Assembly: GCA_038868995.1 (NCBI GenBank) | Contig: JAWCRZ010000003.1 | Coordinates: 2,109 to 66,108, forward strand | DNA from: Candidatus Woesearchaeota archaeon | GTDB lineage: Archaea > Nanobdellota > Nanobdellia > Woesearchaeales > ARS49 | Reading direction: 5' to 3' | Length of the DNA: 64,000 nucleotides | Part shown: piece after piece, positions 1,417 through 55,871 of the stretch | How the letters are laid out: the number at the start of each line of letters is the position of its first letter | Position numbering within the stretch: position 1 is the first letter of the stretch | The notes under the pieces: model-generated | Told to the model about the DNA's origin: nothing | Seen by the model: the letters and a program-made list of their open reading frames with translations, nothing else | The model's database searches: none | Program-made: the position numbers and the translations under genes

Positions 1417-1427
1417 CTTTTTTAAAC
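1417..1427 (+). promoter_or_regulatory. TATA-like box for alaS
   Basis: CTTTTTTAAAC is centred about 28 nt upstream of the ATG at 1450, the same spacing seen at most genes in this window. Confidence 0.4.
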
Positions 1428-7914: not shown

Positions 7915-8954
7915 TGTTAACGCTCTCAGAGGTTGCAAAAGTTAAGGAAGAACTAACAAATTGCCAGCGCCCGCTGTTCATCTTTCACGATGACCCCGAT
8001 GGTCTTGCAAGCTTTCTGTTGTGCTATCGTTTTGTCAAGGAAGGTCGTGGCATTCCAGTCAAGGCATACCCAAGAGTTACCGTCGAGCCGTATGCGAGGA
8101 AGGTTGAGGAATACGGTGCTGACAAGGTGTTTGTTCTTGATGTAGCAATAGTGGAGCAGGATTTCATCGATGCTGTAAACGTGCCTGTCATTTGGATTGA
8201 CCATCATTCTGTGCTTGAAAGAGACAGAGTTCAGTATTTCAATCCGCAAAAGCGCGGCGTTAATATTCCAACTCCTGTATTAATCTGGCAAATCACAGGT
8301 GAAGAGCGTCCTGAGGACTTGTGGATTGCTGCAACTGGCGCGATTGGTGATTGGTATTTTCCTCCGTTTGCTGCTGCTTTTCAGCAGGCGTACCCAGAGT
8401 TGCTGCCGCCAACATGTGCTGGTGTTGAAGATGCTTTGTTTAACACAAAAATTGGCACTTTGGTCAAGGTTTTCTCCTTTAATTTGAAAGGCGCAATGTC
8501 TGAAGTTACACGGTCAGTAAAAGTTCTCACAAGAATTGATGACCCGTACGAGATTTTGGAACAGCGCACTCCAAAGGGCAGATTGCTCTGGAAGAAATAC
8601 CTGCAGGTCAATAAAGTGTATGAAGATATGCTTGCTAAAGCTCTTAAGCGCGATTCCAAAGATCCGTTGTTTGTTTACACGTATCAGGATGACACTTTGA
8701 GTTTGACAAAGGACTTGGCAAACGAGCTTTTGTACAAGTTGAATAAGGTGATTATTGTTGGCAGGGAAAAGTCAGGCGAAGTGCGTTGTTCTTTGCGCGC
8801 TCCTGGCGGGATTGAGCTTTCAAAAGCCTTAGAACGCGCCCTGGTCGGAATTGATGGCTATGGCGGCGGCCACGCGCAGGCCTGCGGCGCAGGCATCAAG
8901 AAAGATGACTTCAAGCGTTTTCTGGAAAATTTGAGGAAAGAATTGAAGTTGTGA
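7914..8954 (+). CDS. DHH/DHHA1 family phosphoesterase (RecJ-like)
   Basis: The motifs FHDDPDGLAS, WIDHH and GGGHAQACG are present. Its start overlaps the protease stop (TGATG). Confidence 0.65.
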   Translation: MLTLSEVAKVKEELTNCQRPLFIFHDDPDGLASFLLCYRFVKEGRGIPVKAYPRVTVEPYARKVEEYGADKVFVLDVAIVEQDFIDAVNVPVIWIDHHSVLERDRVQYFNPQKRGVNIPTPVLIWQITGEERPEDLWIAATGAIGDWYFPPFAAAFQQAYPELLPPTCAGVEDALFNTKIGTLVKVFSFNLKGAMSEVTRSVKVLTRIDDPYEILEQRTPKGRLLWKKYLQVNKVYEDMLAKALKRDSKDPLFVYTYQDDTLSLTKDLANELLYKLNKVIIVGREKSGEVRCSLRAPGGIELSKALERALVGIDGYGGGHAQACGAGIKKDDFKRFLENLRKELKL

Positions 8955-8993
8955 TAACCTTTTTATACTCTATATAAAGAATTTTTCACATTC

Positions 8994-9064
8994 GCGTCGG
9001 TAGTATAATGGCAGTACATCAGCCTTCCAAGCTGATTGTCCGGGTTCGAATCCCGGCCGACGCA
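8994..9064 (+). tRNA. tRNA-Gly (anticodon UCC)
   Basis: Manual cloverleaf: acceptor GCGTCGG/CCGACGC, anticodon arm TCAGC-CTTCCAA-GCTGA, T arm CCGGG-TTCGAAT-CCCGG, discriminator A. No CCA is encoded. Confidence 0.9.
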
Positions 9065-9067
9065 TAC

Positions 9068-9712
9068 ATGGCAGAAACCATCCTGGCTATCGGCGCCCAT
9101 AACGACGACCATGTTATTGGTGCTGGCGGCGCTTTAACCAAATATGCAAAGGAAGGCAGGCGTGTCCGTACCATTATCTGTTCCTTTGGGGAGAAGTCGC
9201 ATCCTCATTTGAAGAAGGAAGTAATTATACGCCGAAGAGTGCAGGAAAGCCTGAAGGCAGATAAGGTTATGGGCTGCTCTGGAATTGTTTACCTTGGAGT
9301 AAGAGAAGGTCATTTTGATGAGGAATTTGCAACGCGGGATATTGCCCGGAAGATTGCATGGCTTATAAGAAAGGAAAATCCCTCAAAGATTTTCACTCAC
9401 GGGATTGATGATTTTCATCCCGACCATCAGGCGGTCCATCGTTTGGTGATGCGTCTTGCAAAAGAGGGGAAAATTAAGTGCCCAATCTACTCTTTTGAAA
9501 TCTGGTCTTTGGTGAAGTTGAGAAACCGCAACCTGCCGCGTCTGGTTGTTGACATCAGCAAGGAGCTCAATACTAAAATCAGGGCATTTCTTGTTCATGA
9601 GAGCCAGACAGCCACCATCTGGGCTTTGCTTTGGAAGCTTATTCTAAAGGACAAGCTTTCAGGTCTTATTCACGGCTATCGCTATGCTGAGGTGTTTTAC
9701 AGGTTAAAATGA
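9068..9712 (+). CDS. PIG-L/LmbE family N-acetylglucosaminyl deacetylase
   Basis: The ATG at 9068 gives MAETILAIGAHNDDHVIGAGG, an AHxDD motif, and HPDH occurs later. The track ORF start at 9008 would overlap the tRNA-Gly. Confidence 0.75.
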   Translation: MAETILAIGAHNDDHVIGAGGALTKYAKEGRRVRTIICSFGEKSHPHLKKEVIIRRRVQESLKADKVMGCSGIVYLGVREGHFDEEFATRDIARKIAWLIRKENPSKIFTHGIDDFHPDHQAVHRLVMRLAKEGKIKCPIYSFEIWSLVKLRNRNLPRLVVDISKELNTKIRAFLVHESQTATIWALLWKLILKDKLSGLIHGYRYAEVFYRLK

Positions 9713-10827
9713 AATTGGTTATTTCGACGGATTGCTTTCTGCCCCGTTGGGATGGCATTGCGCGTTATTTGTCGCAATTGTTGCCTGAGTTTGCAAGAGA
9801 TATGGAAATAACTGTCTTCGCTCCGAAATTCGAGGGCAGGGTTCCTTCATTTAAAGGGGTGAATGTTGTCCGTTTTCCATTGATTAACATCCAATTCGGG
9901 GATATTTTCTTTTGCAGTCCTGATAAGAGGTCAATGGAAAGTGCCATCGCTGCATCTGACATTGTATTCAACCAGACAATTGGTCCGGTTGGCGCTGCTG
10001 CAATCAAGATTGCAAGCAAATTGGGCAAGCCGATTGTCAGCTATATTCATAGTATTGACTGGGAGCTTGCAAGAAGGGCAGTCAAATTCAACAAAAATCT
10101 GGCTGCTTTGTACGTTAAAATGCGCGCACGGAGATTGTACAATAAATGCACACTTTTGCTCTGCCCTTCGAATGAGGTTGCAGATTTGCTTTCTCAAAAT
10201 AAGGTCAAGACGCGCAGGGAAATAGTGCATCTTGGTGTCCCGACTGAAAAGTTCTGCCCTCCTGCTTCAAAATCTGCTGCAAAGCGCAGCTTGGGCATTG
10301 ACCCTGGTTTCAAGATTGTTGGTTTTTGCGGCAGGATTGCAAGGGAAAAGGACTTGCCTACTTTGCACGAGGCTTTTCTCAAAGTTCATGCAAAGCATCG
10401 TGATACTGTGCTTTTGATTGTGGGCGAGGGCTTGGAAAGGGAGATTCCCGCTTCCCACACTGTTTTGCGCGTGGGCAGGCAGGATAATGTTGTTCCTTTT
10501 CTTCAGGCGATGGATATTTTTGTTCTTCCCAGCTTGACTGAAACTTCATCTCTGGCAACCATGGAGGCGATGGCTGTGGAATTGCCTGTAATAGTCACGC
10601 CTGTTGGCAGCATCCGCGAATACGTTGTTGACAAAAAGAACGGCTTGTTGTTTGACAGGCAGGATGTGACTGGGCTTGCTGAGAAGATTGAGTTTTTGTT
10701 GAAAAATCCGAAAATGCGCGTTGCATTGGGCAAAGCAGCAAGAAAGACAATTGTGTGTGATTATTCGTGGGAGCAGACAGTGCAGAAGATTAGGAAAGTT
10801 CTTACATCTTCAGACTTACCACGTTAG
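9709..10827 (+). CDS. glycosyltransferase family 4 (GT-B, group 1)
   Basis: 372 aa. The C-terminal half has FVLPSLTETSSLATMEAMAVELPVIVT, an E-x7-E type motif. It is coupled to the deacetylase gene by an ATGA overlap. Confidence 0.8.
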   Translation: MKLVISTDCFLPRWDGIARYLSQLLPEFARDMEITVFAPKFEGRVPSFKGVNVVRFPLINIQFGDIFFCSPDKRSMESAIAASDIVFNQTIGPVGAAAIKIASKLGKPIVSYIHSIDWELARRAVKFNKNLAALYVKMRARRLYNKCTLLLCPSNEVADLLSQNKVKTRREIVHLGVPTEKFCPPASKSAAKRSLGIDPGFKIVGFCGRIAREKDLPTLHEAFLKVHAKHRDTVLLIVGEGLEREIPASHTVLRVGRQDNVVPFLQAMDIFVLPSLTETSSLATMEAMAVELPVIVTPVGSIREYVVDKKNGLLFDRQDVTGLAEKIEFLLKNPKMRVALGKAARKTIVCDYSWEQTVQKIRKVLTSSDLPR

Positions 10828-13800
10828 ATAACCCTGTTTCCTGGTTCATGCTGACGCCGTAGAGAATATCACCTTCAGAAATTATGGCGTCGTTGTGTGA
10901 AATGACAACGTATTGTGCCTTGTTGCAATAGCTTCTGATTAGTTTCGCAAGTTTTTCGCTGTTGTGCTTGTCAAGCGCGGCGTCCACTTCGTCGAGAATG
11001 TAGAATGTTGCCGGTTCGTGCTCTTGGATTGCAAACAGGAATGCCAGTCCGGTGAGTGTTTTCTCTCCACCGCTCAAACTTCTTATATCAATAAACTTGT
11101 TGCCGCTTAGGCGTACGTTGAATTTTAGGCCTCCTGCAAACGGCTCTTCCTTGTTTTCAAGTTCAAGGTATGCTTCTCCTTTTGTTGTCAGTTGGTTGAA
11201 TATGCGCCTGAATTGTCCATCAACAGCTTGCAATGTCTTCAAGAACAGTTCTTTCTTGTTTCTTTCAATTTCATTCATCATTCCGACAACTGCATCTTTT
11301 TCTTTCAGCAGGACGTTCTTTTTCTCAAGCAATATTCCGTATTCTTTCTCCACCGTCTCATAAATCTCAAGTGCGCGCATATTGACGTTGCCTATTGTTA
11401 TAATCATTCTCTCAAAGTCAGCTATTTCCTTTTTGAGCTGTTCTTCCGGTTTTTCCATATCCAGTTCTACGCCTGAATATTGTTCGAATTCTGCATTCAG
11501 TCCAGCTGATTCTGCCTTTGCTTTTGCCTCTTCGATAGACAACAAATTGATCGTCATCTCTTCTTTTCTGCTCACTTCATCTATGTTCAATATTCTTGCC
11601 TCTTTGTCGCTTGCTTCCTTGTCAAGCTTGTTTCTTTTCTCAATTAATCCTTTGAACTGGCTTAAAAACTGCATTTGTTCTTTTTCCTTGCCAGACAGTT
11701 CTGATTCTTGCCCCGCAATAAGTTTGTTTAAATTTTCTATTTCCCCTTTGAATGCTTCTTCCTCTTTTTCCATGTCTTTTAGCAGCTTGCCCATATTCTC
11801 TTTGTCTCTGCCTAGAATATCGGTCAGCTGAACATCAATGCCTTTTTGTTCTCCTTCAATGCGTATTTTTTCCTGTTCAAGCTGTTTTCTTTTTTCTTCA
11901 AATGCATTCAGCTCCGCCAGAACTCTTGGATTCCTCAATTCAGCAATTTTGTTCCGGATGGTCTGCTTCTCAATTTTCAGGTCGGTGAGCGCTTTTGTTT
12001 CGACTGCTATCTGTTCTTCAAGCGATTCAATGTCTTTGCCTATCTGCTTGATGGTCTTGGTTAATTCTTCCTTGTAGTTTTTTGTCGCTTCCAAATCTCC
12101 TGTATCCAGATGCAAACTTTTTTCCTGTTTGATAATGTCTCCTTCTAAATTCGCCTTTAGCTCCCGCAATTTTGCTATCTTGTCCTCGTTTGCTTTTCTG
12201 TTTCTTTCAAGAGTGTTCAGTCTGTCTTCAAGCGCTGCAACCTGTTTTCTTGTGTCTTCAAGTTTGCCTTCTATTTCTTTTTCCTTGAAGCTTCCTGCTT
12301 TCTTTGCTCTGAAACCTCCTGTCATTGCTCCTGAAAGCTCACACATGTCTCCATCAAGGGTGACCATGCGTGCTTTACCGATGCCAATGCGCCGTGCTGT
12401 TTCAATATCTTCCACAATAAGCGTGTTTCCAAACACATGCGAGAATACATTCTTGAATTTTGGATCAAAATCCAGTAAATCTATGGCAAATCCGTGGACT
12501 CCTTTTTCTTTTGCCAGTTTTTTAAGTTCTTCTTTGACAGGGGTGGGCTTTATTTTGTTCAATGGAAGAAATGTCGCAAATCCAAACTTGCCTGCTTTCA
12601 GGAATTTGATTGCCTGTGCCGCTGTTTTGTCTTCGTCTACAACTATGCTGTGAATTTTCTGCGAGGCGGCTATCTCAAGCGCCAGCGCGTATTTGCTTTC
12701 CGAGCTTCCCAATTCAGAAACAGTTCCATATACTTCGCCGAATTTTTGTCTGTTCTCCAAAACTTTTTTTACAGCAATGTTTGCAGATATTTGTTCCTGC
12801 ACTGATGCCTGCTTGATGCTCAACTTGCTTTCTTCTTCTCGCATTGAGTGCAGTTCTGCCCTGCCTTTTGCGAGCGTATTTGCGTCTTTGCTGTCCTGAT
12901 TCAGAAGTTCATTGAGTTCAAGGACAATTTTCTTGAATTGTTCTTTCTTGTTCTTCAGCTCCCGTAATTCTTCTGTATGTGCGCTCTCAAGTTCTTTGAC
13001 TTTTGCTATTTTCTCGTCCATTGTTGCTATCTGGAATTCTGCCTTGTCTTTTTCGCGCACGAGTGCCTGTTGTTTTTCACGCAGTATTTGTATCTCCCGT
13101 TGTTTTTCCTCTGCTCTTTTGTCAAGTTCTTCAAATTGCTTGTCGATATCGGCATCATCCTGTAAATCATGTTTTGCCTTGAATTCCTTTATTTTTGAAT
13201 CCAGTTCTGCAATGGTTTTGCCCATTGCTTCCAGCTGTGCTGTCTGCTGTCTTTTCTGCTCGTTGAGTTCCTTTATTTTGTCATCAACTTCTTCCATGTT
13301 CTTTTGCAGCTGTTCTTTGCGCTGGCAGATTCTGTCAATTTCTGTCTTGCAGGTGCTTATGCGCTGTTTGTGCATCGCTAACTGGATTTTGAGTTGTTCG
13401 ACTTCCTTCTGGATTTTTATCTGTTCAACTTCCCCCCTTCTTTCAATTTCAGAATTTATCTCCTGTATTGTTTTTTTGCATTCTGCAATCTCGTTGCGCA
13501 ATCTTTGTATCTGCTGCTGGTATTTTGCAAGCTTTTCTTTGTGCTCTGAGCTTTTGTCCTCTAATTTTTTAAGTTCAGCATCTTTCTTGTTCAACTGTCT
13601 TTTGAGATAGCTTGCCTTGTTCTGCTTTATCTTGTCATTCAATTCTTTGTACTTCAGTGCCTGGTCCCTGTCTTTTTTCAGTTCTTTCAGGTATGATTCT
13701 CTTTCTTTCAAAATAATCTCTGCCTCGTTCAATTTCGCTCCGACTTTTTCAAGCTCATTTAGCGCTTGCTGTTTTTTCTCTTCATATATTCCAATGCCTG

Positions 13801-14356
13801 CTATTTCTTCAACAAGCTGTCTAAGTTCAATGCCGCTCATCATTACCAGCCTTGTTATATCTCCTTGCAGAATTATGTTGTAGCCTTCCGGGTTGATTTT
13901 TGCAGCACTTAATAACTCAAGTATTTCCTGCCTTGTTTTTGTCTTGCCGTTTATCTTGTATTTGCCTGTTCCGTCAGCTCTGACTATTCTTGTTATTTTT
14001 ACTTCCTCTTCCTCAATCGGGAATATTTTTTGCCTGTTGTCAAAGACAATGCTTACTTCTGCTTCTTTTGCCGGCTGTTTTGTCTTGCCGCCGTTGTAGA
14101 TTAGGTTCGCGCTTTTTTCTGCTCGCAATTGCTTTGAAGAACTCTTTCCAAGTACAAAACATAGTGCATCCAGAACGTTTGACTTGCCGCTTCCGTTTGG
14201 CCCAAGAATGACGTTGAAGTCGTCTCCAAACAGCAGTTCTGTGTATTTTCCAAAGCTCTTGAACCCGTTAAGGATTAGTTTTGTTATCTTTGTGGCTTTA
14301 GCTACTTTGGGTATTTCCGTCTCTGGTGTAGTTACTACCCCTGTTTCCATCTTCAT
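10802..14356 (-). CDS. smc: chromosome segregation protein SMC
   Basis: 1184 aa. It has the Walker A GPNGSGKSNVLDA, long Lys/Glu coiled coils, a hinge, the signature LSGGEKTLTGLAFLFA and the Walker B FYILDEVDAALD. Confidence 0.95.
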   Translation of the reverse strand: MKMETGVVTTPETEIPKVAKATKITKLILNGFKSFGKYTELLFGDDFNVILGPNGSGKSNVLDALCFVLGKSSSKQLRAEKSANLIYNGGKTKQPAKEAEVSIVFDNRQKIFPIEEEEVKITRIVRADGTGKYKINGKTKTRQEILELLSAAKINPEGYNIILQGDITRLVMMSGIELRQLVEEIAGIGIYEEKKQQALNELEKVGAKLNEAEIILKERESYLKELKKDRDQALKYKELNDKIKQNKASYLKRQLNKKDAELKKLEDKSSEHKEKLAKYQQQIQRLRNEIAECKKTIQEINSEIERRGEVEQIKIQKEVEQLKIQLAMHKQRISTCKTEIDRICQRKEQLQKNMEEVDDKIKELNEQKRQQTAQLEAMGKTIAELDSKIKEFKAKHDLQDDADIDKQFEELDKRAEEKQREIQILREKQQALVREKDKAEFQIATMDEKIAKVKELESAHTEELRELKNKKEQFKKIVLELNELLNQDSKDANTLAKGRAELHSMREEESKLSIKQASVQEQISANIAVKKVLENRQKFGEVYGTVSELGSSESKYALALEIAASQKIHSIVVDEDKTAAQAIKFLKAGKFGFATFLPLNKIKPTPVKEELKKLAKEKGVHGFAIDLLDFDPKFKNVFSHVFGNTLIVEDIETARRIGIGKARMVTLDGDMCELSGAMTGGFRAKKAGSFKEKEIEGKLEDTRKQVAALEDRLNTLERNRKANEDKIAKLRELKANLEGDIIKQEKSLHLDTGDLEATKNYKEELTKTIKQIGKDIESLEEQIAVETKALTDLKIEKQTIRNKIAELRNPRVLAELNAFEEKRKQLEQEKIRIEGEQKGIDVQLTDILGRDKENMGKLLKDMEKEEEAFKGEIENLNKLIAGQESELSGKEKEQMQFLSQFKGLIEKRNKLDKEASDKEARILNIDEVSRKEEMTINLLSIEEAKAKAESAGLNAEFEQYSGVELDMEKPEEQLKKEIADFERMIITIGNVNMRALEIYETVEKEYGILLEKKNVLLKEKDAVVGMMNEIERNKKELFLKTLQAVDGQFRRIFNQLTTKGEAYLELENKEEPFAGGLKFNVRLSGNKFIDIRSLSGGEKTLTGLAFLFAIQEHEPATFYILDEVDAALDKHNSEKLAKLIRSYCNKAQYVVISHNDAIISEGDILYGVSMNQETGLSNVVSLKM

Positions 14357-14396
14357 TTTTGGTATATTTAGGGTATATAAAGACTGTGGTAGAAAG

Positions 14397-14530
14397 GCTG
14401 TATTGAAAAGTTTTCAATGGGCCCTGGTCTCACAGCGTGAGACTTCCTTTTTTCCTCGCCTGCGCAGGGGAGAAAAAAGGAACCTTGGCTTTGCCAGGGC
14501 GGGGTCTGCGCTGAACCTTTCAATACAGCC
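14397..14530. mobile_element. family-2 hairpin MITE (134 bp) with 9-bp target-site duplication
   Basis: The termini are GCTGTATTGAAAAG and CTTTCAATACAGCC, forming inverted repeats. It is flanked by GGTAGAAAG at 14388-14396 and 14531-14539. Its core is homologous to family 1. Confidence 0.75.
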
Positions 14531-14539
14531 GGTAGAAAG

Positions 14540-14549
14540 TTATTTAAAG
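14540..14549 (+). promoter_or_regulatory. TATA-like box for the parvulin gene
   Basis: TTATTTAAAG is centred about 26 nt upstream of the ATG at 14571 and directly abuts the MITE duplication. Confidence 0.45.
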
Positions 14550-14570
14550 CCTATATTTGGCGCTACAGTT

Positions 14571-15752: not shown

Positions 15753-15762
15753 TCTTTAAAAT
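15753..15762 (-). promoter_or_regulatory. TATA-like box for rnhB
   Basis: The reverse strand reads ATTTTAAAGA, centred about 25 nt upstream of the ATG at 15732 and 3 bp from the MITE duplication. Confidence 0.45.
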
Positions 15763-15773
15763 CTTTGCCTGCG

Positions 15774-15898
15774 GGTGCTGTCAACTTAATGGTGCCGCGC
15801 TGGCCTGACTTTTCTTCTCCCCTTGCAAGTGCGGGGTGAGAAAAGTCATCTCGGCAACGTCGAGGCAGCGCGGCCAGCACCAGAGAGTTGACTTAACC
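15774..15898. mobile_element. family-1 hairpin MITE (125 bp) with perfect 9-bp target-site duplication
   Basis: It runs GGTGCTGTCAACTTAATGGTGC...CACCAGAGAGTTGACTTAACC and is flanked by TTGCCTGCG at 15765-15773 and 15899-15907. Confidence 0.85.
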
Positions 15899-15911
15899 TT
15901 GCCTGCGAAAT

Positions 15912-15921
15912 GTTTATATAC
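15912..15921 (+). promoter_or_regulatory. TATA-like box for the 15943 gene
   Basis: GTTTATATAC is centred about 26 nt upstream of the ATG at 15943. Confidence 0.45.
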
Positions 15922-16366: not shown

Positions 16367-16915
16367 ATGCAACTAACCCCAGAACTTGTTCGAATTCACG
16401 CGCATCTTTGTGGAGACGGCAGCATTTGTGAATACAAATCTTCCGAAAAAGACCATAAAAGACGCGCGGCGGTTCTTTATTGGAATACGAACTCAGAACT
16501 CATAGAGTCTTTTAGACGAGATATGACTGCAGAATTTGGAGTGAAGATGACATATAGCCCTAAAAGTTGCAGAGTGGCAGTCCGGAGTTTAAGGATTGCG
16601 AGACGATTGCTGTCTTTGTCACAATATAAAACTCGAACTTGGCGTGTGCCCGAACGCATCAAGAAGGCTTCACGCGAGTTGCAGATTGAATGGATTAAGG
16701 CATTCTCATATGATGATGGGTATACTCCGAGGGAAAGAAAAGTTATACGACTCAAGTGCATGAACTACCATGGACTTAAAGACGTCAAAGAAATGGTTGA
16801 CAAATTAAGAATAAAAAACTCATTCACTGGACCTAATTGTGATGGGACTTGGTATTTGAATATTCACAAGCAAAAAGAGTTATTTGATTTTGTCAAGAAA
16901 CCTTCAAGAAAATAA
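16367..16915 (+). CDS. free-standing double-motif LAGLIDADG homing endonuclease-like protein
   Basis: There are two LAGLIDADG-like motifs about 100 aa apart: HAHLCGDGS and IKAFSYDDGY. An alternative TTG start lies at 16361. Confidence 0.6.
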   Translation: MQLTPELVRIHAHLCGDGSICEYKSSEKDHKRRAAVLYWNTNSELIESFRRDMTAEFGVKMTYSPKSCRVAVRSLRIARRLLSLSQYKTRTWRVPERIKKASRELQIEWIKAFSYDDGYTPRERKVIRLKCMNYHGLKDVKEMVDKLRIKNSFTGPNCDGTWYLNIHKQKELFDFVKKPSRK

Positions 16916-16939: not shown

Positions 16940-17045
16940 TAGCGGGAGGTGGAAGTTCAGCCGGCGCAGTCAAGCACACGGGCATTTGAACCACCGAGCT
17001 ATGGGTTATGAGCCCATCGGGAACTCCAGACTTCCCTACCCCGCT
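16940..17045 (-). tRNA. initiator tRNA-Met (CAU) containing a 31-nt non-canonical intron at position 59/60
   Basis: Acceptor AGCGGGG/TCCCGCT with an A1:U72 pair. The anticodon arm ATGGG-CTCATAA-CCCAT has three G:C pairs. The T arm GGTGG-TTCAAA[intron]T-CCACC is interrupted at plus-strand positions 16954-16984. The mature length would be 75 nt. Confidence 0.8.
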
Positions 17046-17070
17046 GTAATGATAACTGCTCTTTGTGCTG

Positions 17071-17080
17071 TTTTATAAAT
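17071..17080 (-). promoter_or_regulatory. TATA-like box for initiator tRNA-Met
   Basis: The reverse strand reads ATTTATAAAA, centred about 30 nt upstream of the tRNA 5' end (17045) and directly next to the MITE duplication. Confidence 0.45.
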
Positions 17081-17090
17081 GTTTGCTCAG

Positions 17091-17232
17091 GGTTAAGTCA
17101 AGTTTCTGGTGCTGGCTGGCCGCTCTGGTCCTCTGGACTCATTTTTCTCTCCTCCTCGCAGGTGCGGAGGAGAGAAAAATGACCTCAGCGAAGCTGAGGC
17201 TGAGCGGCCAGCACAATTAAGTTGACAGCACC
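17091..17232. mobile_element. family-1 hairpin MITE (142 bp) with perfect 9-bp target-site duplication
   Basis: It runs GGTTAAGTCAAGTTTCTGGTGCTGGC...GCACAATTAAGTTGACAGCACC and is flanked by TTTGCTCAG at 17082-17090 and 17233-17241. The central 17-bp stem is perfect. Confidence 0.9.
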
Positions 17233-17244
17233 TTTGCTCAGTAA

Positions 17245-17255
17245 CCTTTAAATAT
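17245..17255 (+). promoter_or_regulatory. TATA-like box for tRNA-Ser
   Basis: CCTTTAAATAT is centred about 30 nt upstream of the tRNA 5' end at 17280. Confidence 0.45.
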
Positions 17256-17279
17256 GCTCGATAAGGTGCTTTTCTTCAT

Positions 17280-17365
17280 GCCGGCGTGGCACAACCTGGT
17301 ACTGCGCGGGATTGCTAATCCCGTTTCTCGCAAGAGATTTCCCGGTTCAAATCCGGGCGCCGGCG
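17280..17365 (+). tRNA. tRNA-Ser (anticodon GCU)
   Basis: Acceptor GCCGGCG/CGCCGGC, anticodon arm CGGGA-TTGCTAA-TCCCG, a long variable arm (TCTC-GCAA-GAGA), T arm CCCGG-TTCAAAT-CCGGG, discriminator G. Confidence 0.9.
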
Positions 17366-17411
17366 TATTTTTGTCAGAAAGCTTTAATATGTTTGATGCT
17401 CTTGTTGAAAT

Positions 17412-19818: not shown

Positions 19819-20472
19819 ATGCAAAAAACAGTGGTGATGTCTGTTGGCGGTAGTTTAATCAATCCCGGCAAGATTCAAGTCGGCTTTCTTAGGCACCTTA
19901 AAAAGTTTGTGAGCAGGAGCCAGCACAAGTTCATTATTGTTTGTGGCGGTGGTTATAATGCCCGCGCCTATCCTTCCGCTGCAAAACTTTTTGGTGTGGA
20001 TAATGTCGGGCGTGATGAAATAGGAATTAAGGCGACTGTTCTTAACGCTGAACTTCTGCGCCAGATTTTCAGGGCAATGCCTGTGCAGCAAATGCCAAGA
20101 AGAATTTCTTTTAGAAAGATTATGGTAGCTGCTGGCTGGAAGCCGGGCTGCTCTACCGATTACGACGCTGTTCTGTGGGCAAAAAAGTTTGGTGTGAAGG
20201 ACGTTATCAATCTCAGCAACACTGATTATATTTACACAAAAGACCCAAAAAAGTTCGAGGATGCAAGGCCTTTGAAGAAAATCTCGTGGAAAGCATACAG
20301 AAAAATGATTTCTGCAAAATGGTCTGCAGGGCTTTCAACGCCGTTTGACCCAATTGCTTCAAGGGTTGCTGAAAAGTGGAAAATGAGGGTTTTGTGCATA
20401 AATGGAAAAAAGCTTAATGAGTTGTCAAAAGCTTTTGCAGGAAGGAAATTTGTTGGCACGGTGATTGGATGA
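19819..20472 (+). CDS. pyrH: UMP kinase, archaeal type
   Basis: 217 aa. The N-terminus VVMSVGGSLINPG and IIVCGGG indicate the amino-acid-kinase fold typical of archaeal PyrH. Confidence 0.8.
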   Translation: MQKTVVMSVGGSLINPGKIQVGFLRHLKKFVSRSQHKFIIVCGGGYNARAYPSAAKLFGVDNVGRDEIGIKATVLNAELLRQIFRAMPVQQMPRRISFRKIMVAAGWKPGCSTDYDAVLWAKKFGVKDVINLSNTDYIYTKDPKKFEDARPLKKISWKAYRKMISAKWSAGLSTPFDPIASRVAEKWKMRVLCINGKKLNELSKAFAGRKFVGTVIG

Positions 20473-22406
20473 AAAAGCTTCTTATGCTGCTGTTACTGGT
20501 CCCGCTGGTCCTCGCCCAACCGACTGATTGGTTTAAGGCGGGCTTGGTTAAGACGAGGATGGAAGCATCCTCTGTTATTGAATTGCAACCGCGCGGACCA
20601 AATCCTTTTGTTGAGTCAATCCGGACAGACGTTATTTTTGTTCCTCAAAACTCCGAGTTTTCTGCTGTGAGGAGTTTTGATGCGACACCTTCTGCCATTG
20701 CCACTGGCGATCGTGTCCGGTTTGAATGGCGCGCTCCGCAGATAGGAAAATTGTCATACAAATACCAGGCAATTGTTGAAACCGCTAATAATGCTCCAAG
20801 GGTTGCTGCAAAGATTCCATATCCTTTTAAAGTGCCTCCTAATCTTGAAAAGTATGTCAAACCTACACAAAATATTGATTCTAACAATCCAAAGGTGTTG
20901 GGTCAGGCGTATGCCTTGGCACAGGGTGAGGATGACTTGTTTTTGTTGGTAAGCAAGATTGCAATATGGACCAAGAATAATGTTAGGTATAACCTAAGCA
21001 CGCTGACGGCTGATGTTTCCCAGCCGGCCTCCTGGGTGCTCGAAAACAGGTATGGTGTTTGTGATGAGATTACCGGCTTGTTTATTGCTATGCTGCGTGC
21101 ATTGAAGATTCCGGCAAAATTTGTTTCTGGCATTGCATTCACCAATTCTGTTGAGTTTCCGCAAGGGTGGGGCGCGCACGGCTGGGCTGAGGTGTATTTT
21201 CCTGGTGTTGGCTGGGTTCCTTTTGACCCTACTTTCGGTGAATATGGCTGGGTTGACCCGAGCCATATCAAGCTGAAGGAAAGTTTTGATCCTCAGGAGC
21301 CGACTACTGTGTTTGAATGGAAGGCGCGGGATGTCGATGTCAGGGTTGAGGACTTGAAGCTGGGCGCTGAGAAAATCGACCAGTCGGGCAGTGTGCCTTT
21401 TGAGCTTAAGTTGTCTGCCGCTCCGTTGAGGCCGCGCGTTGGCTTTGGCAGCTTCAATGGTGTTGTCCTGAACATTGAAAATCTTGCTGACTATTATGTT
21501 GGGGCTGAGTTCAGCTTGTCTCGGGTTACTGATATGACTATTCTTGACGGGGAATCAAAGCAGATTGCCCTGCCTCCGAAAGGGCGTGGACGTCTGTTTT
21601 GGAAGGTGAAAGTGCGGGAAAATCTTGACCCGCATTTCCAGTATGAACTGCCGATTCGCATTTACACAATTAGGAATGATACTGTTGAGACCGCGTTTGG
21701 AGTTGGCCAGTGGGATATCGTGTTTTCGCAGGCGGACATAGATACTGAAATAACCAGGCTTTCGGCAACCCAGCGCGATCCGTTGCAGTTGGCGTGCGTG
21801 CTGAAGGATGACATGATTTGGGATGATGTTGGCAGGGTTGATTGCCTTGTACAAAACAAGGGAGAAAAAGAGCTTCCTGTGAAAGTGTGTTTTGGGCAGT
21901 GCCGTGAGGCGATTGTTCCAGGTAATTCAAACTTGCCTGTATCCTTTGACATTCCAATGCCAGGCCCTGGCCAGAAGGAAGTTGTTGTGACTGCTTCTTC
22001 CGGTGACTTGGAGAAAAAGGCAGTGCTCACCTTGGTGCGCTTGGAAGAGCCGCGCATTGCCATTAAGGATATATCATTGCCTGAGCGCATCCTGTACGGG
22101 GATACTTTTACTTTGCTGTTCACTTTGTCGCGTGAAAGCATCTCGCTTCCTGAAAACGTCACTGTTAATGTCGAAGGTGGTGGAGCAAAGGCAAAAGTTG
22201 AGGTTGGTGACCTTTTAATCGATCAGGAAGTGCACGTCAACATCCGCTCTGACCAGTTGTATTCCGGTAATCCGTTGTTTGACATTGATGTTACGTATCA
22301 GGATCCATTCGGCCAGCAGTATCACGAAAGCGCTTCTGCTTCCACATTTGTTTCAGATGTGCCATGGTATAAGCGTTTCCTCGGCTGGTTTATTGACCTC
22401 TTTTGA
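20469..22406 (+). CDS. secreted transglutaminase-like domain protein
   Basis: It has a signal peptide. The transglutaminase core is YGVCDEITGLFIAMLRALKIPAKFVSG...HGWAEVYFPGVGWVPFDPT, giving the Cys-His-Asp triad. It overlaps pyrH by ATGA. Confidence 0.8.
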   Translation: MKKLLMLLLLVPLVLAQPTDWFKAGLVKTRMEASSVIELQPRGPNPFVESIRTDVIFVPQNSEFSAVRSFDATPSAIATGDRVRFEWRAPQIGKLSYKYQAIVETANNAPRVAAKIPYPFKVPPNLEKYVKPTQNIDSNNPKVLGQAYALAQGEDDLFLLVSKIAIWTKNNVRYNLSTLTADVSQPASWVLENRYGVCDEITGLFIAMLRALKIPAKFVSGIAFTNSVEFPQGWGAHGWAEVYFPGVGWVPFDPTFGEYGWVDPSHIKLKESFDPQEPTTVFEWKARDVDVRVEDLKLGAEKIDQSGSVPFELKLSAAPLRPRVGFGSFNGVVLNIENLADYYVGAEFSLSRVTDMTILDGESKQIALPPKGRGRLFWKVKVRENLDPHFQYELPIRIYTIRNDTVETAFGVGQWDIVFSQADIDTEITRLSATQRDPLQLACVLKDDMIWDDVGRVDCLVQNKGEKELPVKVCFGQCREAIVPGNSNLPVSFDIPMPGPGQKEVVVTASSGDLEKKAVLTLVRLEEPRIAIKDISLPERILYGDTFTLLFTLSRESISLPENVTVNVEGGGAKAKVEVGDLLIDQEVHVNIRSDQLYSGNPLFDIDVTYQDPFGQQYHESASASTFVSDVPWYKRFLGWFIDLF

Positions 22407-22534
22407 GAGTCAAGTTTCTGGTGCTGGCTGCTCTTGTCCTTTGGACTCATTTTTCTCTCGCAGGTGAGGAGGATAGAAAAATGACCTCGGCGAAGCTGAG
22501 GCAGAGCGCCCAGCGCCATTAATTTGACAGCGCC
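22407..22534. mobile_element. family-1 hairpin MITE (128 bp, left tip shortened)
   Basis: It runs GAGTCAAGTTTCTGGTGCTGGCTG...CCATTAATTTGACAGCGCC. The flanks CTCTTTTGA (22398-22406) and CTCTTCTGA (22535-22543) match at 8 of 9 positions. Confidence 0.75.
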
Positions 22535-22546
22535 CTCTTCTGATAA

Positions 22547-22557
22547 GCTTTATAAAC
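22547..22557 (+). promoter_or_regulatory. TATA-like box for the 22579 gene
   Basis: GCTTTATAAAC is centred about 27 nt upstream of the ATG at 22579 and 3 bp after the MITE duplication. Confidence 0.45.
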
Positions 22558-29675: not shown

Positions 29676-29793
29676 TTTTAAATATCTCTTCTCTGTTTAT
29701 TGCAAGATTTTATGCGTTTTAAAAAGTTGATTCTGGTTTTGGTTGCTGTCTTGGTGTTCGATGGTTGCTGAGGCGTATGTTTGCCGGACTATC

Positions 29794-29830
29794 GAGGCAG
29801 AGCGGCCAGAACCATTAATTTGACAGCACC
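29794..29830. mobile_element. right-arm fragment of family-1 MITE
   Basis: GAGGCAGAGCGGCCAGAACCATTAATTTGACAGCACC aligns with the right arms of the copies at 22407 and 55747. No matching left arm or duplication was found. Confidence 0.6.
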
Positions 29831-29842
29831 GTCCGATAGAAA

Positions 29843-29855
29843 CCTTTTTAAATGG
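29843..29855 (+). promoter_or_regulatory. TATA-like box for aIF5A
   Basis: CCTTTTTAAATGG is centred about 28 nt upstream of the ATG at 29877 and 12 bp after the MITE fragment. Confidence 0.45.
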
Positions 29856-30444: not shown

Positions 30445-31617
30445 ATGAGTGTTGACGGCATTGCAGCAATCATTTTTGTCATTCTGCTTGGCTTGTTTTT
30501 GTGGAAAAAGCGTAATCAGGTTCATCTGCAAAAGGCGCTGTTTCCAATTTTGTATGTTGTGATGTACAAATCGTCTTTTGGCCTGCGCTCTATGGAGCGT
30601 ATTTCAAAAAAATTCCCAAGGATGCTTCGCCTGCTTGCCGACATTGCTGTCATTCTGGGCTTTATAGGTATGGTCTTTATTTGTGCGCAGCTGCTGCTCG
30701 TCACAGTTGAGGTGTTTACAAAGCCAGGTGGCATACCGGGCATTCAGCCGGTGCTGCCTATTGAGGCAAAGGGTGTCTTTTTTGTTCCGTTCCTGTACTG
30801 GATTTTGAGCATTTTCCTGCTTGCATTGTTTCACGAGTTTGCCCATGGTGTTGTCGCACGTGTCTATAATATTCCTGTTAGGAGCAGTGGTTTTGCTTTT
30901 CTCTGTATTGTCCTGCCTGTCATTCCTGCTGCTTTTGTCGAGCCCGATGAGAAGGTAGTGCAGAGGCGTTCTTATCGTCAGCAGCTTGGCGTGTTTGCTG
31001 CCGGTCCTATTGCGAATATGCTTTTTGCCGCAGCAATGATTGGTGTTTTTTTTCTGGTGTCTCCTATTCTGTCATCTGCTTTTGAGCCACAAGGTGTTGA
31101 GGTGGTGAAGATAACTCCCGGCGGTCCTGCTGCCCTGGCAGGAATTAAGGAAGGTGACATTATTACCTATATTGACAATGTTCAGGTATCTTCAGTTGAG
31201 AATATGACTGCAATTCTCAAGCAGGCAGCGCCCGGCGACCATCTGTTGTTTCAAACATCTGCTTCATATGCCGTGACTCTTGGTGAAAACCCTCAGAATG
31301 CTTCTAAGGCTTTTCTTGGGGTGCAGACTCGTACCCATCTTGTTCCTAAAGAAGTTTTTGTTGAGCGCTATGGCGCCTGGCTTCCGTTGTTGCTTAAATG
31401 GGTTGCTGGCCTTATTTTCTGGCTGTTTATGCTGAATGTAGGTATTGGCCTTTTCAATCTGTTGCCAATTGGCCCGCTTGATGGGGGCAGGATGTTCCAA
31501 TTGGTTTGTTTCAAATTGTTTAAGAACAAGTCCACTGCTGTCCGCGTCTGGGCTTTTGTTAGCGTGTTTTTCGTTGCTATTATTCTGGCAAATATGCTTG
31601 TTGGCTTCTTCCGCTAG
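30445..31617 (+). CDS. site-2 protease family (M50) membrane metalloprotease with PDZ domain
   Basis: HEFAHGVVA (HExxH) sits in a TM helix. There is a PDZ-like segment ITPGGPAALAGIKEGDIITYIDN and a LDGG motif near the C-terminus. Confidence 0.85.
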   Translation: MSVDGIAAIIFVILLGLFLWKKRNQVHLQKALFPILYVVMYKSSFGLRSMERISKKFPRMLRLLADIAVILGFIGMVFICAQLLLVTVEVFTKPGGIPGIQPVLPIEAKGVFFVPFLYWILSIFLLALFHEFAHGVVARVYNIPVRSSGFAFLCIVLPVIPAAFVEPDEKVVQRRSYRQQLGVFAAGPIANMLFAAAMIGVFFLVSPILSSAFEPQGVEVVKITPGGPAALAGIKEGDIITYIDNVQVSSVENMTAILKQAAPGDHLLFQTSASYAVTLGENPQNASKAFLGVQTRTHLVPKEVFVERYGAWLPLLLKWVAGLIFWLFMLNVGIGLFNLLPIGPLDGGRMFQLVCFKLFKNKSTAVRVWAFVSVFFVAIILANMLVGFFR

Positions 31618-33077
31618 CCCTTTACATTCCCAATCGGCTTGAACGCGACTATTTTCTTGCTAATGCCTGCCTTATCCATTGTGTCCACTACTTCAGAAAT
31701 TGGTTTGTAGGCAAAGCCAGCTTCTTCCGCAAGGCCTGAATAGCTGGCTGTTCTGACGTAAATGCCTCTTTTCTGCATTTCTTTTTGCAGTTGCTCTCCG
31801 CGCACTTCTTTCCTTGCTTTTGTCCTGCTCATCGTTCTTCCGCTTCCATGTGCAGTGCTGCCGAATGTCTCCTCGAGTGCTTTGTCGGTTCCCAAAAGCA
31901 GGTAGCTTCCTGTTTCCATGCTCCCTCCCACAATCACCGGCTGTCCAATCTTTCTGAATCGCGGTGCAAGCTCTGTTCTGCTTGGCCCGAAGCATCTTGT
32001 TGCGCCTTTTCTGTGTACTACAAGCTTTTTCTCTTTTTTTCCCAGCGTATGCTTTTCAAACTTTGCTACATTGTGTGCAACGTCGTATACAAGATGCATT
32101 TCCATTTCTTCAGGGCTTTTTTGGAATATGTTTTTGAAGCATTCGCGTATTCTGTGCAGTATGACCTGCCTGTTTGCGAATGCGGTGTTTGCAGCGCAGG
32201 CCATTGCATGGTAATAGTTCTGTCCTTCTTTGCTTGAGAATGGCGCGCATGCCAGTTCTGGGTCGCGTACTTTTATTTCATATTTTTTCATTGCTTCTGA
32301 GAATATTTTAAGGTAATCAGTGCCGATTTGGTGTCCAAATCCCCTGCTCCCGCAGTGCACCATGATGCATATTTGGTCTTCACTTGTTATGCCTAGCTTT
32401 TCAGCAACTTTCTTGTCAAATATCTGTCCTGCGTATTGGATTTCAAGATAGTGGTTTCCGCTTCCAAGTGTTCCGAGTTGGTTGATGCCCCTGCTTATTG
32501 CTTTTTCGCTTACTTTGTCCGGTTCTGCGTGGTCTATGCATCCGTAGTCCTCTGTGCGTTCAAGGTCTTCCTCCCATCCGTACCCGTTCTCAATGCACCA
32601 TTTTGAGCCGTTTTTCATCACTTCTCTGAATGTTTGCGGCGTGAGCTTTACAAAGCCCTTGCAGCCGACGCCTGAAGGGACTTGCTGGAAAAGCATATCA
32701 ACCAGTACTTTTAATTTTGGCTCCATTTCTTTGTATGTCAGGTTTGTTGTTACCAGCCGCATGCCGCAGTTTATGTCAAAGCCGATTCCTCCTGGAGAGA
32801 TTACTCCTTCGTCTGGGTCAAATGCAGCCACTCCTCCTATTGGAAACCCGTAGCCCGAATGTGCATCTGGCATGCAAAGTGCATGATTCACAATGCCTGG
32901 CAGGCATGCAACATTGGTCAATTGGTCGTACACTGCCAAATCCATTTCTTTGATGAGTTTTTCAGTTGCGTAGATGCGTGCTGGCACGCGCATTCCTTTT
33001 TTGTACGCCATGGGGATGTCCCAGATGACGTCTCCTTTTCTTTCAAACTCAGGCACTTGAACATTGCGTTGCATCAT
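31614..33077 (-). CDS. rtcB: RNA-splicing ligase RtcB
   Basis: Conserved segments are present: CMPDAHSGYGFPIGGV, GFDINCGMR, GSGNHYLE, HCGSRGFGHQ, AHGSGR. The start at 33077 gives an ATGA overlap with the archease stop. The track ORF begins at 33104. Confidence 0.95.
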   Translation of the reverse strand: MMQRNVQVPEFERKGDVIWDIPMAYKKGMRVPARIYATEKLIKEMDLAVYDQLTNVACLPGIVNHALCMPDAHSGYGFPIGGVAAFDPDEGVISPGGIGFDINCGMRLVTTNLTYKEMEPKLKVLVDMLFQQVPSGVGCKGFVKLTPQTFREVMKNGSKWCIENGYGWEEDLERTEDYGCIDHAEPDKVSEKAISRGINQLGTLGSGNHYLEIQYAGQIFDKKVAEKLGITSEDQICIMVHCGSRGFGHQIGTDYLKIFSEAMKKYEIKVRDPELACAPFSSKEGQNYYHAMACAANTAFANRQVILHRIRECFKNIFQKSPEEMEMHLVYDVAHNVAKFEKHTLGKKEKKLVVHRKGATRCFGPSRTELAPRFRKIGQPVIVGGSMETGSYLLLGTDKALEETFGSTAHGSGRTMSRTKARKEVRGEQLQKEMQKRGIYVRTASYSGLAEEAGFAYKPISEVVDTMDKAGISKKIVAFKPIGNVKG

Positions 33078-33496
33078 ATGTCCAGCACCACCGTTGCCTG
33101 CCAAATGCCTTTTTTCTTTTCAACCATCCAGTAATGCATTGTTACTGCTTTCACGTCTTGGTTGAGCTCTTGCTCATCCGGTTTTATGGTGTCTCCGGTC
33201 AACAATGCAGTAACTTCCATTTTTTTTTCATCAACTTTCACTTCTGCCTTGTTGAAAACAATGGCATCCTTGTCTTTCAAATATATCATCTCCTCCAAAA
33301 AATCAAACAGCAGCTTGCTTGCATCCTTGTTCTTTATTTTAATCTCTTTTACAACAACCGGCTTGATGCTTTTCGGGTTTGCCATGCTTTCAATAACTGC
33401 GTCTGCAGCGCTTTGGAATAATTCGGTTAAATTTTTTCCTGTTGCCCTGAATGCAACATCTGCAATGGCTATGTCTTCGATGAATTTGAATGGCAT
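33074..33496 (-). CDS. archease (RtcB activator)
   Basis: 140 aa. The N-terminus MPFKFIEDIAIADVAFRATGKNLTELF and the C-terminus KAVTMHYW are typical of archease. Confidence 0.85.
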   Translation of the reverse strand: MPFKFIEDIAIADVAFRATGKNLTELFQSAADAVIESMANPKSIKPVVVKEIKIKNKDASKLLFDFLEEMIYLKDKDAIVFNKAEVKVDEKKMEVTALLTGDTIKPDEQELNQDVKAVTMHYWMVEKKKGIWQATVVLDI

Positions 33497-36240: not shown

Positions 36241-36311
36241 TGGGGCTGCGGAGGATCGAACTCCGGTCACAAGGTCCCGAACCTTGTATCTTGCCACTGG
36301 ACCACAGCCCC
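36241..36311 (-). tRNA. tRNA-Pro (anticodon CGG)
   Basis: Acceptor GGGGCTG/CAGCCCC, anticodon arm CAAGG-TTCGGGA-CCTTG, T arm CGGAG-TTCGATC-CTCCG, discriminator A. Confidence 0.9.
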
Positions 36312-36312
36312 G

Positions 36313-36384
36313 TGAGCCCGGCCAGATTCGAACTGGCGACCTTCTCCCTGTGAAGGAGACGTCATACCGCTAGACCACGGGCTC
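36313..36384 (-). tRNA. tRNA-Val (anticodon CAC)
   Basis: Acceptor GAGCCCG/CGGGCTC, anticodon arm TCTCC-TTCACAG-GGAGA, T arm GCCAG-TTCGAAT-CTGGC, discriminator A. It lies 1 nt upstream of tRNA-Pro. Confidence 0.9.
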
Positions 36385-54803: not shown

Positions 54804-55193
54804 ATGATAAAACTTGAAAGATATGGTGATTCATTTTACGCGGTGTTCCGCATTTTTGTCGGCTTGCTGTTTATGCAGCATGGCTTGCAGAAATTGTTTG
54901 GCTTGATTGGAGGTAATGCCGCTTCTGCGTTCAGCTTGATGTGGTTTGCAGGACTGATTGAGTTTGCTGGTGGCTTGTTGATAGCCGTCGGCTTGTTCAC
55001 GCGAATTGTTTCATTCATTGCAGGTGTTGAAATGCTTGTTGCGTATTTCAAGGCGCACTTTCCTCAGGGCTGGGTTCCGATTATGAACAGGGGTGAGTTG
55101 GCTTTGCTTTTCTTCGCGGCATTTCTGGTGTTGATGTCGCAGGGCGCTAAGAAGTGGTCTTTTGACAGTATTTGTTCAAGAAATAATCAGTAA
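54804..55193 (+). CDS. DoxX family membrane protein
   Basis: 129 aa. It has RIFVGLLFMQHGLQKLFG and four hydrophobic helices. Confidence 0.75.
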   Translation: MIKLERYGDSFYAVFRIFVGLLFMQHGLQKLFGLIGGNAASAFSLMWFAGLIEFAGGLLIAVGLFTRIVSFIAGVEMLVAYFKAHFPQGWVPIMNRGELALLFFAAFLVLMSQGAKKWSFDSICSRNNQ

Positions 55194-55702
55194 TTGCAGG
55201 GTCCTGGCGTCATGCCGATGATTCGTCCGGTCGAGCCGCAGATACGCTGGCAGACCATGCGCGCTTGTCCTTCATTGTCTGCGGTGATTGCTTCTGTTGG
55301 ACAGCTGCACGTGTAGCATTCCTGTCCTTGGGATGGATGCGGCATTATTCCTGCTTGGCAGTCGGCAAGGCATTGCCGCAGTGCTTCTCCTCCGAGTGGC
55401 TGTTGTCCGACTGATGGCCTTCCTGGTTCTGTTCCAAAGCATGCTGCCTGACAGTCGGTTACACTGCCGGGTGTTCCTATCATATATCTCCCCGGCTGGT
55501 CTTCTGTTGGTATCATTCCGCCGGCATATGCTTCGTATGGGCTTTGGAATTGGCTTGGGTCCAGTGGTATGCTGCCGTACGGTGGTCCGCGGTATGCCAT
55601 GCCTTCTGGTATTCCGTACAGCATGGTATATGTTAGTCCGATTGCCGCTATGAGCGCGAACGCAAGAAACAGGTATAGTTCTACTCTCCCTCTTTTTGGC
55701 AT
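55187..55702 (-). CDS. membrane-anchored Cys-rich protein, unknown function
   Basis: The ATG at 55702 (MPKRGRVELYLFLAF...) lies 26 nt downstream of a TATA-like box (reverse strand TTTTTAAATG). The C-terminal half has 12 Cys. The track start is a TTG at 55714. Confidence 0.5.
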   Translation of the reverse strand: MPKRGRVELYLFLAFALIAAIGLTYTMLYGIPEGMAYRGPPYGSIPLDPSQFQSPYEAYAGGMIPTEDQPGRYMIGTPGSVTDCQAACFGTEPGRPSVGQQPLGGEALRQCLADCQAGIMPHPSQGQECYTCSCPTEAITADNEGQARMVCQRICGSTGRIIGMTPGPCNY

Positions 55703-55746
55703 GGAAGGAAGCAATTATCGCTCATTTAAAAATTTTTTTAATCCAC

Positions 55747-55871
55747 GGTTAAGTCAAGTTTCTGGTGCTGGCTGCTCTTGTCCTTTGGACTCATTTTTCT
55801 CTCGCAGATGCGGAAAAATGACCTCGGCAAAGCCAAGGCTGAGCGGCCAGCACCATTAAGTTGACAGCACC
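55747..55871. mobile_element. family-1 hairpin MITE (125 bp) with perfect 9-bp target-site duplication
   Basis: It runs GGTTAAGTCAAGTTTCTGGTGCTGGCTG...CAGCACCATTAAGTTGACAGCACC and is flanked by TTAATCCAC at 55738-55746 and 55872-55880. Confidence 0.9.

Follow-up and report, generated by a model that had tools for sequence, protein, structure and literature searches.

MITE insertions at a constant distance upstream of predicted TATA boxes in a Woesearchaeota-like archaeon

Introduction

Integration of the retrotransposon Ty3 is positioned by TFIIIB, which includes TBP and a TFIIB-like factor, homologues of the archaeal TBP and TFB. In bacteria, the Mutator-like DDE transposases of TnGBS, ISLre2 and ISKra4 act on sigma-A promoters, inserting upstream of the -35 box, with 13-17 bp between it and the inverted-repeat junction, and generating duplications of 8-9 bp (Guerillot et al. 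2014, PMC3942029). The authors of that study liken the promoter targeting of TnGBS-type elements to that of Ty3 and TFIIIB. In the same work, the archaeal element ISH6 is described as preferring an AT-rich, TATA-like 8-mer, which may bias it toward promoters (PMC3942029). Insertion in a fixed register relative to promoters has thus been described in bacteria and yeast, and no archaeal report was found as far as could be established. A fixed spacing to the archaeal TATA box is reported neither in a census of MITEs nor in a recent review nor in a survey of archaeal IS elements (PMC10969869 and PMC11602168 among these sources).

The elements described here lie in a 64-kb stretch of archaeal DNA, which was analysed as a whole and is referred to as the window. 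The closest described systems are TnGBS, ISLre2 and ISKra4, with which the new elements share insertion at a short and constant distance ahead of a core promoter element (here 14 nt to the TATA core, or 14 or 15 nt in family B), duplications of 8-9 bp and a promoter that stays functional. The terminal C of the inverted repeats of these elements is matched here as well (5'-GG...CC-3'), a feature that is not family-specific. These systems are, however, bacterial and autonomous, have an identified transposase, use the -35 box as a landmark and insert mostly in one orientation, whereas the MITEs of the window have an archaeal host and a TATA/BRE landmark, occur in both orientations and are non-autonomous. 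The lack of an orientation bias argues against simple membership in an ISLre2-type group.

Ty3, like Ty1 and Tf1, shows promoter-directed integration positioned by the initiation apparatus, which makes it a possible parallel to the MITEs described here. These elements differ in being retrotransposons with integrases, and the sites used by Ty3 are transcription starts and not the region ahead of a TATA box. ISH6 is an archaeal Mutator-like IS whose ends begin with GGT, which makes it similar to the elements of the window. In ISH6, the AT-rich motif (AANATNTT, 8 bp) is itself the duplicated sequence. In the window, the duplicated 9-mers are not rich in A and T, and the TATA box stands outside them at a constant offset. 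Among the termini found here, the family A end GGTGCTG fits the GGnnnTG pattern of IS1 and IS6, GGTTAAG fits only the rule of G1, G2 and G7, and the family B end GGCTGTA fits neither. IS1 makes duplications of 8-9 bp and favours AT-rich regions, while IS6/IS26 differ in making 8-bp duplications. To our knowledge, insertion at a fixed offset from promoters is not a known trait of either family.

With seven copies in 64 kb, the density in the window is ~109 per Mb, which is close to the 105 MITEs per Mb listed for a Woesearchaea genome in the census (PMC10969869, PMC11602168). The Correia/NEMIS elements of Neisseria are likewise small inverted-repeat elements located mostly just upstream of genes, but they target TA and carry their own promoters (PMC10969869, PMC11602168).

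Host and gene map of the window

The window encodes the archaeal markers aIF5A, RtcB with archease, Cdc6, Rpb7 and S24e, and the nearest homologues of its RNase HII and aIF5A are labelled Candidatus Woesearchaeota / Nanoarchaeia. The host is a DPANN/Woesearchaeota-like archaeon, and the window is a section of a contig of 92.5 kb. The G+C content is ~45%, and the intergenic share amounts to 4-10%, depending on the way gaps are filled (coding density to ~96%).

A promoter matrix of 10 columns was trained on the upstream regions of the window's own genes and yielded the consensus (C/G)TTTWWAWA, with TTTWWAWA as the TATA core. The original prediction had centred TATA-like boxes about 26-30 nt before start codons and tRNA 5' ends. 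With the matrix, 30 of the 40 scoring genes have their best TATA match at a centre 25-28 nt ahead of the ATG, and the centre lies ~29 nt before the 5' end of both the tRNA-Ser and the initiator-like tRNA gene; the predicted boxes look like real promoter elements. A TATA-to-ATG distance of 25-28 nt is characteristic of leaderless transcription from TATA promoters, and mostly leaderless mRNAs are implied. Occupied and unoccupied promoters alike also have a conserved stretch at -7 to -1 relative to the core (not-T, R, W, A, A, M, S), which looks like a BRE. Throughout the window, promoter architecture is very uniform, and stop codons often stand just 1-5 nt before the TATA box of the next gene.

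The longest ORF of smc occupies 10802-14356 on the minus strand, with its first ATG at 14356. The true start is probably the second ATG at 14350, as indicated by the position of the TATA box and by the orthologue of the relative L117, which starts with M-E. The smc TATA core, TTTATATA at 14374-14381 on the minus strand, has a matrix score of 12.2, its centre lies 27 nt ahead of this second ATG, and the box is conserved in L117.

Several tRNA genes of the window have unusual features. The genes for tRNA-Pro(CGG) and tRNA-Val(CAC) at 36241-36384 (minus strand) abut with zero spacer. The initiator-tRNA-like gene (anticodon CAT, 16942-17046, minus strand) reaches only 18.8 bits with the Rfam tRNA model and was detected neither by ARAGORN nor by Rfam at gathering score. 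It carries an apparent insertion of ~31 nt after the T-loop, GGTGG-TTCAAAT-[GCCCGTGTGCTTGACTGCGCCGGCTGAACTT]-CCACC, which could represent a non-canonical intron. Genes for RtcB (31614-33077) and archease (33074-33496) lie nearby, and a LAGLIDADG-like ORF (16367-16915) adjoins the tRNA genes. In L117, the matching place holds a LAGLIDADG_3-type gene (8859-9500) of opposite orientation and lacks the initiator tRNA.

Two families of MITEs

Repeat searches and BLAST of the window identified seven loci. All copies had originally been taken for one element, but they belong to two families. Family A comprises four full and two partial copies, and family B is represented by the single copy at 14396-14530. 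The full elements measure 125-142 bp and are crossed by short chance ORFs only. They are non-autonomous DNA transposons (MITEs) of two related families, as follows from their small size, their inverted repeats, the duplications at their borders, the absence of an ORF and the empty sites in relatives.

Family A elements have the ends GGTTAAGTCAAG... and ...GTTGACAGCACC. Their imperfect inverted ends, GGTTAAGTCAAGTTTCTGGTGCTGGC and GCCAGCACCATTAAGTTGACAGCACC, form repeats with arms of 20-25 nt that are 80-84% complementary. The full copies are located at 15774-15898 (125 bp), 17091-17232 (142 bp, the longest copy), 22407-22534 (128 bp, with ~4 nt missing at the left end) and 55747-55871 (within the same 125-142 bp class), all given on the plus strand, as are the remaining copies. 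In the copy at 15774, the interior has diverged and the terminal hexamers are swapped, both in comparison with the remaining family members. The two partial copies are an internally deleted left-end remnant at 1372-1404 and a right-end fragment at 29794-29830; both are deletion products, which the original prediction had not recognised. Family B (135 bp) has a different inverted repeat, GGCTGTATTGAAA.../...TTTCAATACAGCC, of 17 nt and 94% complementarity, and it is absent upstream of the smc gene of L117.

Despite their different sequences, families A and B have one fold in common, in which a terminal stem encloses three hairpins (z-scores between -4.5 and -8.1, the latter in family B). In both families, the central hairpin has a run of T5-6 on both strands. 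This hairpin could serve as a two-way archaeal terminator.

No transposase was detected with Pfam and NCBIfam among all called proteins of the window; the transposase that moves the MITEs would be encoded elsewhere. A search of genome contigs with the overly degenerate pattern GTCAANTTNNNKGTGCTGGC returned 116 chance matches in bacteria and no related element, and an exact 20-mer had two chance matches in metagenomes, both in GC-rich bacterial coding DNA. Scans of viral sequences gave no match for family A and single chance matches only for family B, and BLAST of both elements against a phage collection gave no match.

Insertion sites and target-site duplications

The duplications of family A are 9 bp long, and their sequence differs from copy to copy. 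They are perfect at 15774 (TTGCCTGCG), 17091 (TTTGCTCAG) and 55747 (TTAATCCAC) and contain one mismatch at 22407 (CTCTT(T/C)TGA) and 1372 ((T/C)CTTTTTAG). The duplication of family B, GGTAGAAA(G), comprises 8 bp, or 9 bp if G14396 is counted.

Three copies separate divergent promoters. The family B copy lies between smc and a parvulin gene identified by Pfam. Its left duplication, GGTAGAAA at 14388-14395, is a direct repeat of 14531-14538, and the right duplication (14531-14538/9) is followed by the parvulin TATA core TATTTAAA at 14541-14548 (plus strand), the box being centred 26 nt before the ATG at 14571. The copy at 15774 is preceded by the TATA core of rnhB (15755-15762, minus strand), a 2-nt gap and the left duplication TTGCCTGCG at 15765-15773. 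To its right, the stretch 15899-15920 (plus strand) comprises the second TTGCCTGCG, the 5-nt spacer aaatg and the TATA core TTTATATA (15913-15920) of the gene for a 118-aa protein at 15943. At 17091, the arrangement consists of the TATA core of the initiator-like tRNA gene (17072-17079, minus strand), a 2-nt gap and the left duplication TTTGCTCAG (17082-17090), and, on the other side of the element at 17233-17254 (plus strand), the right duplication TTTGCTCAG, the spacer taacc and the TATA core TTTAAATA (17247-17254) of tRNA-Ser (17279-17366).

The remaining copies have a TATA box on one side. The left duplication of the 22407 copy, CTCTTTTGA at 22398-22406 (plus strand), carries the stop codon of a transglutaminase-like gene (20469-22406); the right side (22535-22556, plus strand) consists of the duplication CTCTTCTGA, the spacer taagc and the TATA core TTTATAAA (22549-22556) of the PIN-KH ATPase gene at 22579. 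The fragment at 29794 is followed by the target 9-mer GTCCGATAG (29831-29839), the spacer aaacc and the TATA core TTTTTAAA (29845-29852) of aIF5A on the plus strand. At 55747, the order is reversed, with the TATA core TTTTTAAA (55725-55732, minus strand) of the gene 55187-55702, the spacer aaaaa (read on the gene strand) and the left duplication TTAATCCAC (55738-55746) standing before the element and the right duplication TTAATCCAC (55872-55880) behind it. On the minus strand, this right duplication reads GTG GAT TAA and terminates an upstream ORF. At three sites, 22407, 29794 and 55747, the stop codon of the gene upstream is contained in the duplication. The remnant at 1372 is bordered by the duplications TCTTTTTAG (1363-1371) and CCTTTTTAG (1405-1413), the latter followed by the spacer ttact and the TATA core TTTTTAAA (1419-1426, plus strand) of the alanyl-tRNA synthetase gene at 1450.

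Spacing to the TATA core

At each of the six family A loci, exactly 5 nt separate the duplication from the best-scoring TATA core, as measured by program and visible in the aligned sites, and the distance from the junction to the TATA core is therefore 14 nt (9-bp duplication plus 5 nt) in every case. The 5-nt gap is on the right at 1372, 22407 and 29794, with none on the left, and on the left at 55747, with none on the right; at 15774 and 17091, it is on the right and accompanied by a gap of 2 nt on the left. For family B, the gaps are 6 nt on the left and 1-2 nt on the right. The distance from its left junction to the smc core is 14 nt with the full inverted repeat (8 + 6) and otherwise 15 nt, depending on which of the two, element or duplication, G14396 is assigned to. 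Because of a T-run, the position of the core at 1372 is uncertain by 1 nt, the alternative match scoring 6.2 vs 11.0. The distance to the start codon varies between 35 and 37 nt and that to the TATA core is constant; hence, the register follows the TATA box. There is no orientation bias, as the TATA box at 14 nt faces the ...AGCACC end at 17091, 22407 and 29794 and the GGTTAA end at 15774 and 55747.

According to the original prediction, the copies lie 0-12 bp from a TATA box. Its individual figures (3, 4, 1, 3, 3, 12, 6 and 3) are roughly right, but the constant gap of 5 nt was missed. The splitting of three divergent pairs, smc/parvulin, rnhB/15943 gene and tRNAi/tRNA-Ser, was confirmed. The distance of 13-25 bp that had been reconstructed for their TATA boxes before insertion needs correction, because the cores were 16 bp apart in all three pairs (14374-14548, 15755-15920 and 17072-17254). 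This common distance may be a coincidence or reflect a second contact. In close promoter pairs without an element, the cores are ~7 or 19 bp apart or overlap.

Empty sites in relatives

Relatives with 74-93% protein identity have empty sites, with the TATA box already present, at five of the seven loci: 14396, 15774, 17091 (right flank), 22407 and 29794. Neither a MITE copy nor another repeat of MITE type was found in ~80 kb of syntenic DNA from these relatives. The earlier statement that the duplication preserves the upstream flank is borne out by these sites, which show that the TATA box and the BRE-side sequence predate the insertions. The possibility that the element brought in the TATA box was rejected, since the boxes are already present at the empty sites.

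L117, whose RNase HII is 83% identical, has a conserved gene order and is uninterrupted at four places. These are the spacer between rnhB and the gene for the 118-aa protein (tttaaaatctTTGCCACCAaaatgTTTAAATA), the transglutaminase/PIN-KH junction (ctgTTCTGAcaaccTTTATAAAcacc) and the regions upstream of tRNA-Ser (ttcCTCAGtaaccTTTAAATA) and upstream of smc. The exact empty site for 29794 is found in L147 (aIF5A 93% identical) and reads gtgaacGTCCGATAGaaaccTTTTTAAA, its TAG being the stop codon of the upstream gene. At the 55747 locus, L144 and L146 have a stop codon, a short spacer and a TATA box, without a MITE.

Comparison with L147 also explains the partial copy at 29794. A deletion extends from about codon 27 of the upstream gene into the MITE (window 29713-29830 vs L147 9425-9963), and the window retains only ~27 codons, the signal-peptide part, of a gene that encodes 133-177 aa in relatives. 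The 29794 copy is thus the endpoint of a gene deletion, and the elements also contribute to genome reduction.

Two further observations concern the neighbourhood of these sites. The gene upstream of the 55747 copy (55872-56144, minus strand) is broken by a frameshift or stop codon into ORFs of 28 aa and 49 aa, whereas the gene of L144 encodes 133 aa; the split gene may be a pseudogene or an assembly error. In the transglutaminase/PIN-KH spacer of L147, an extra segment of ~78 nt (1213-1290), GC-rich and able to form a hairpin, lies between the stop codon and the TATA box and is unrelated to the MITEs of the window.

Origin of the constant spacing

An insertion was considered harmless when the 9-bp duplication restores any gene that is split, or any split promoter with 7 nt upstream. 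For the location of the copies, gaps were generously filled by extra ORFs, which left 1759 harmless placements in the window. Only 11% of these are 6 nt or less from a functional TATA core, and the finding of all seven copies among them has P = 2e-7; with a looser gene map, 7% of the harmless placements are beside a TATA box. The register was tested conditionally on the constraints of each of the six family A sites, and any one common spacing was accepted. Harmless placements number ~8 each at 22407, 29794 and 55747, from 4 to 12 in the divergent pairs and ~30 at 1372. The probability that all six sites share one spacing is 1.4e-5, which rises to 6e-4 under the strictest assumption that promoters need 11 native upstream bases. 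Occupied promoters have a higher matrix score than unoccupied ones (11.7 vs 9.9, P = 0.019), and ~7 of ~30 available promoter sites, about a quarter, are occupied. An additional target motif in the form of an AG-like end of the duplication was considered and rejected, as it is the general promoter consensus at -7/-6 and is common to unoccupied promoters.

The original prediction had left the choice between target preference and purifying selection. Preference is favoured by the 14-nt register and by the absence of all seven copies from sites away from TATA boxes, and selection alone fits poorly (P between 1.4e-5 and 6e-4). Under selection alone, insertion would be near-random, the surviving copies would be those that spare genes, stop codons and core promoters, and the closeness to TATA boxes would be a by-product of short spacers. 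Such a view can draw on the small intergenic share (just ~4-10% of the window) and on the duplication itself, which preserves both flanks and makes tight sites survivable. It also accords with the stop codon that stands exactly 5 nt from the core at 22407, 29794 and 55747, where the observed placement is, among ~8 harmless ones, the one furthest from the TATA box. Purifying selection surely acts as well and leaves the ~8 placements at these three sites. As a sufficient cause, it is nevertheless unlikely: the ~89% of harmless placements away from TATA boxes hold none of the seven copies (P = 2e-7), the spacing is identical under different constraints, including those at 1372 with ~30 open placements (P = 1.4e-5 to 6e-4), and the divergent pairs allow 4 to 12 placements, yet both family A pairs are split 2/5.

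Positive selection would require that the element provides a useful function at a fixed distance from the promoter, for instance through a regulator site in the inverted repeat or through a two-way oligo-T terminator or insulator formed by the central hairpin. The retention of one fold by both families in spite of their different sequences (z from -4.5 to -8.1) would fit such a function, as would the T5-6 run on both strands of the central hairpin and the location of three copies behind the stop codon of one gene and ahead of the promoter of the next, where no other terminator is present. We consider this quite unlikely, because three of the seven copies are located between divergent promoters, where there is nothing to terminate, and because the copies at 1372 and 29794 have no hairpins yet keep the spacing, as expected if it is set at insertion. 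Moreover, random insertion followed by selection would need to have reached about one in four of the available promoters in exact register, and the same promoters manage without elements in the relatives. Very unlikely is an origin of the spacing in the definition of the core, in misassembly at repeats or in the small sample. It is true that the training set of the matrix came from this window, that the DNA was assembled from a metagenome and that N is 7, with 1-nt ambiguities at 1372 and in family B. The core is, however, placed independently by its constant distance to ~30 start codons, and the spacing also holds when it is read straight from the aligned sequences. Chimeric joins and misassembly are excluded by the matching duplications on both sides and by a gene order that is shared with relatives across every element.

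Proposed promoter-keyed target choice

It is fairly probable that the transposase picks its target at a fixed distance from the archaeal core promoter and that this choice sets the common spacing. The proposal is based on seven sites in one genome (the 64-kb window), with predicted TATA boxes and predicted transcription starts, and from these sequences we infer that the spacing would result from target choice and not from selection. Its staggered cuts would fall near -14/-15 and -5/-6, counted from the TATA core. The duplicated 8-9 bp would then fill roughly -14 to -6 upstream of the core, and the junction would come to lie 14 nt away. By virtue of the duplication, the targeted TATA box retains 14 nt of native sequence, including the BRE-like stretch from -7 to -1, a back-to-back partner promoter retains 10-11 nt, and a stop codon located just upstream is regenerated. 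Since the BRE, the partner promoter and the stop codon are kept in this way, insertions are near harmless and persist even at a coding density of ~96%.

The promoter could be read as the DNA sequence or shape of BRE and TATA box or, alternatively, as a bent promoter occupied by TBP and TFB. A more specific and rather tentative version, which we regard as possible but doubtful, is that an archaeal transposase docks on the promoter while this is bent and bound by TBP/TFB, and that its cut is placed where the complex ends on the upstream side. Such a mechanism would be the counterpart of Ty3/TFIIIB and TnGBS/sigma-A targeting. If docking occurs in this way, the duplication would be a built-in safeguard of the BRE and of stop codons, and this would explain the presence of ~100 copies per Mb in a DPANN genome of ~1 Mb.

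Significance

If promoter-keyed target choice is confirmed, promoter-directed integration would extend to the third domain, on a promoter type that is common to archaea and eukaryotes. It would point to a transposase that reads either TATA/BRE DNA or TBP/TFB, and the MITE copies would serve as markers of active promoters in an organism that is uncultured. It would also explain how mobile elements can persist at high density in a very compact DPANN genome, where the duplication would repair what the insertion splits.
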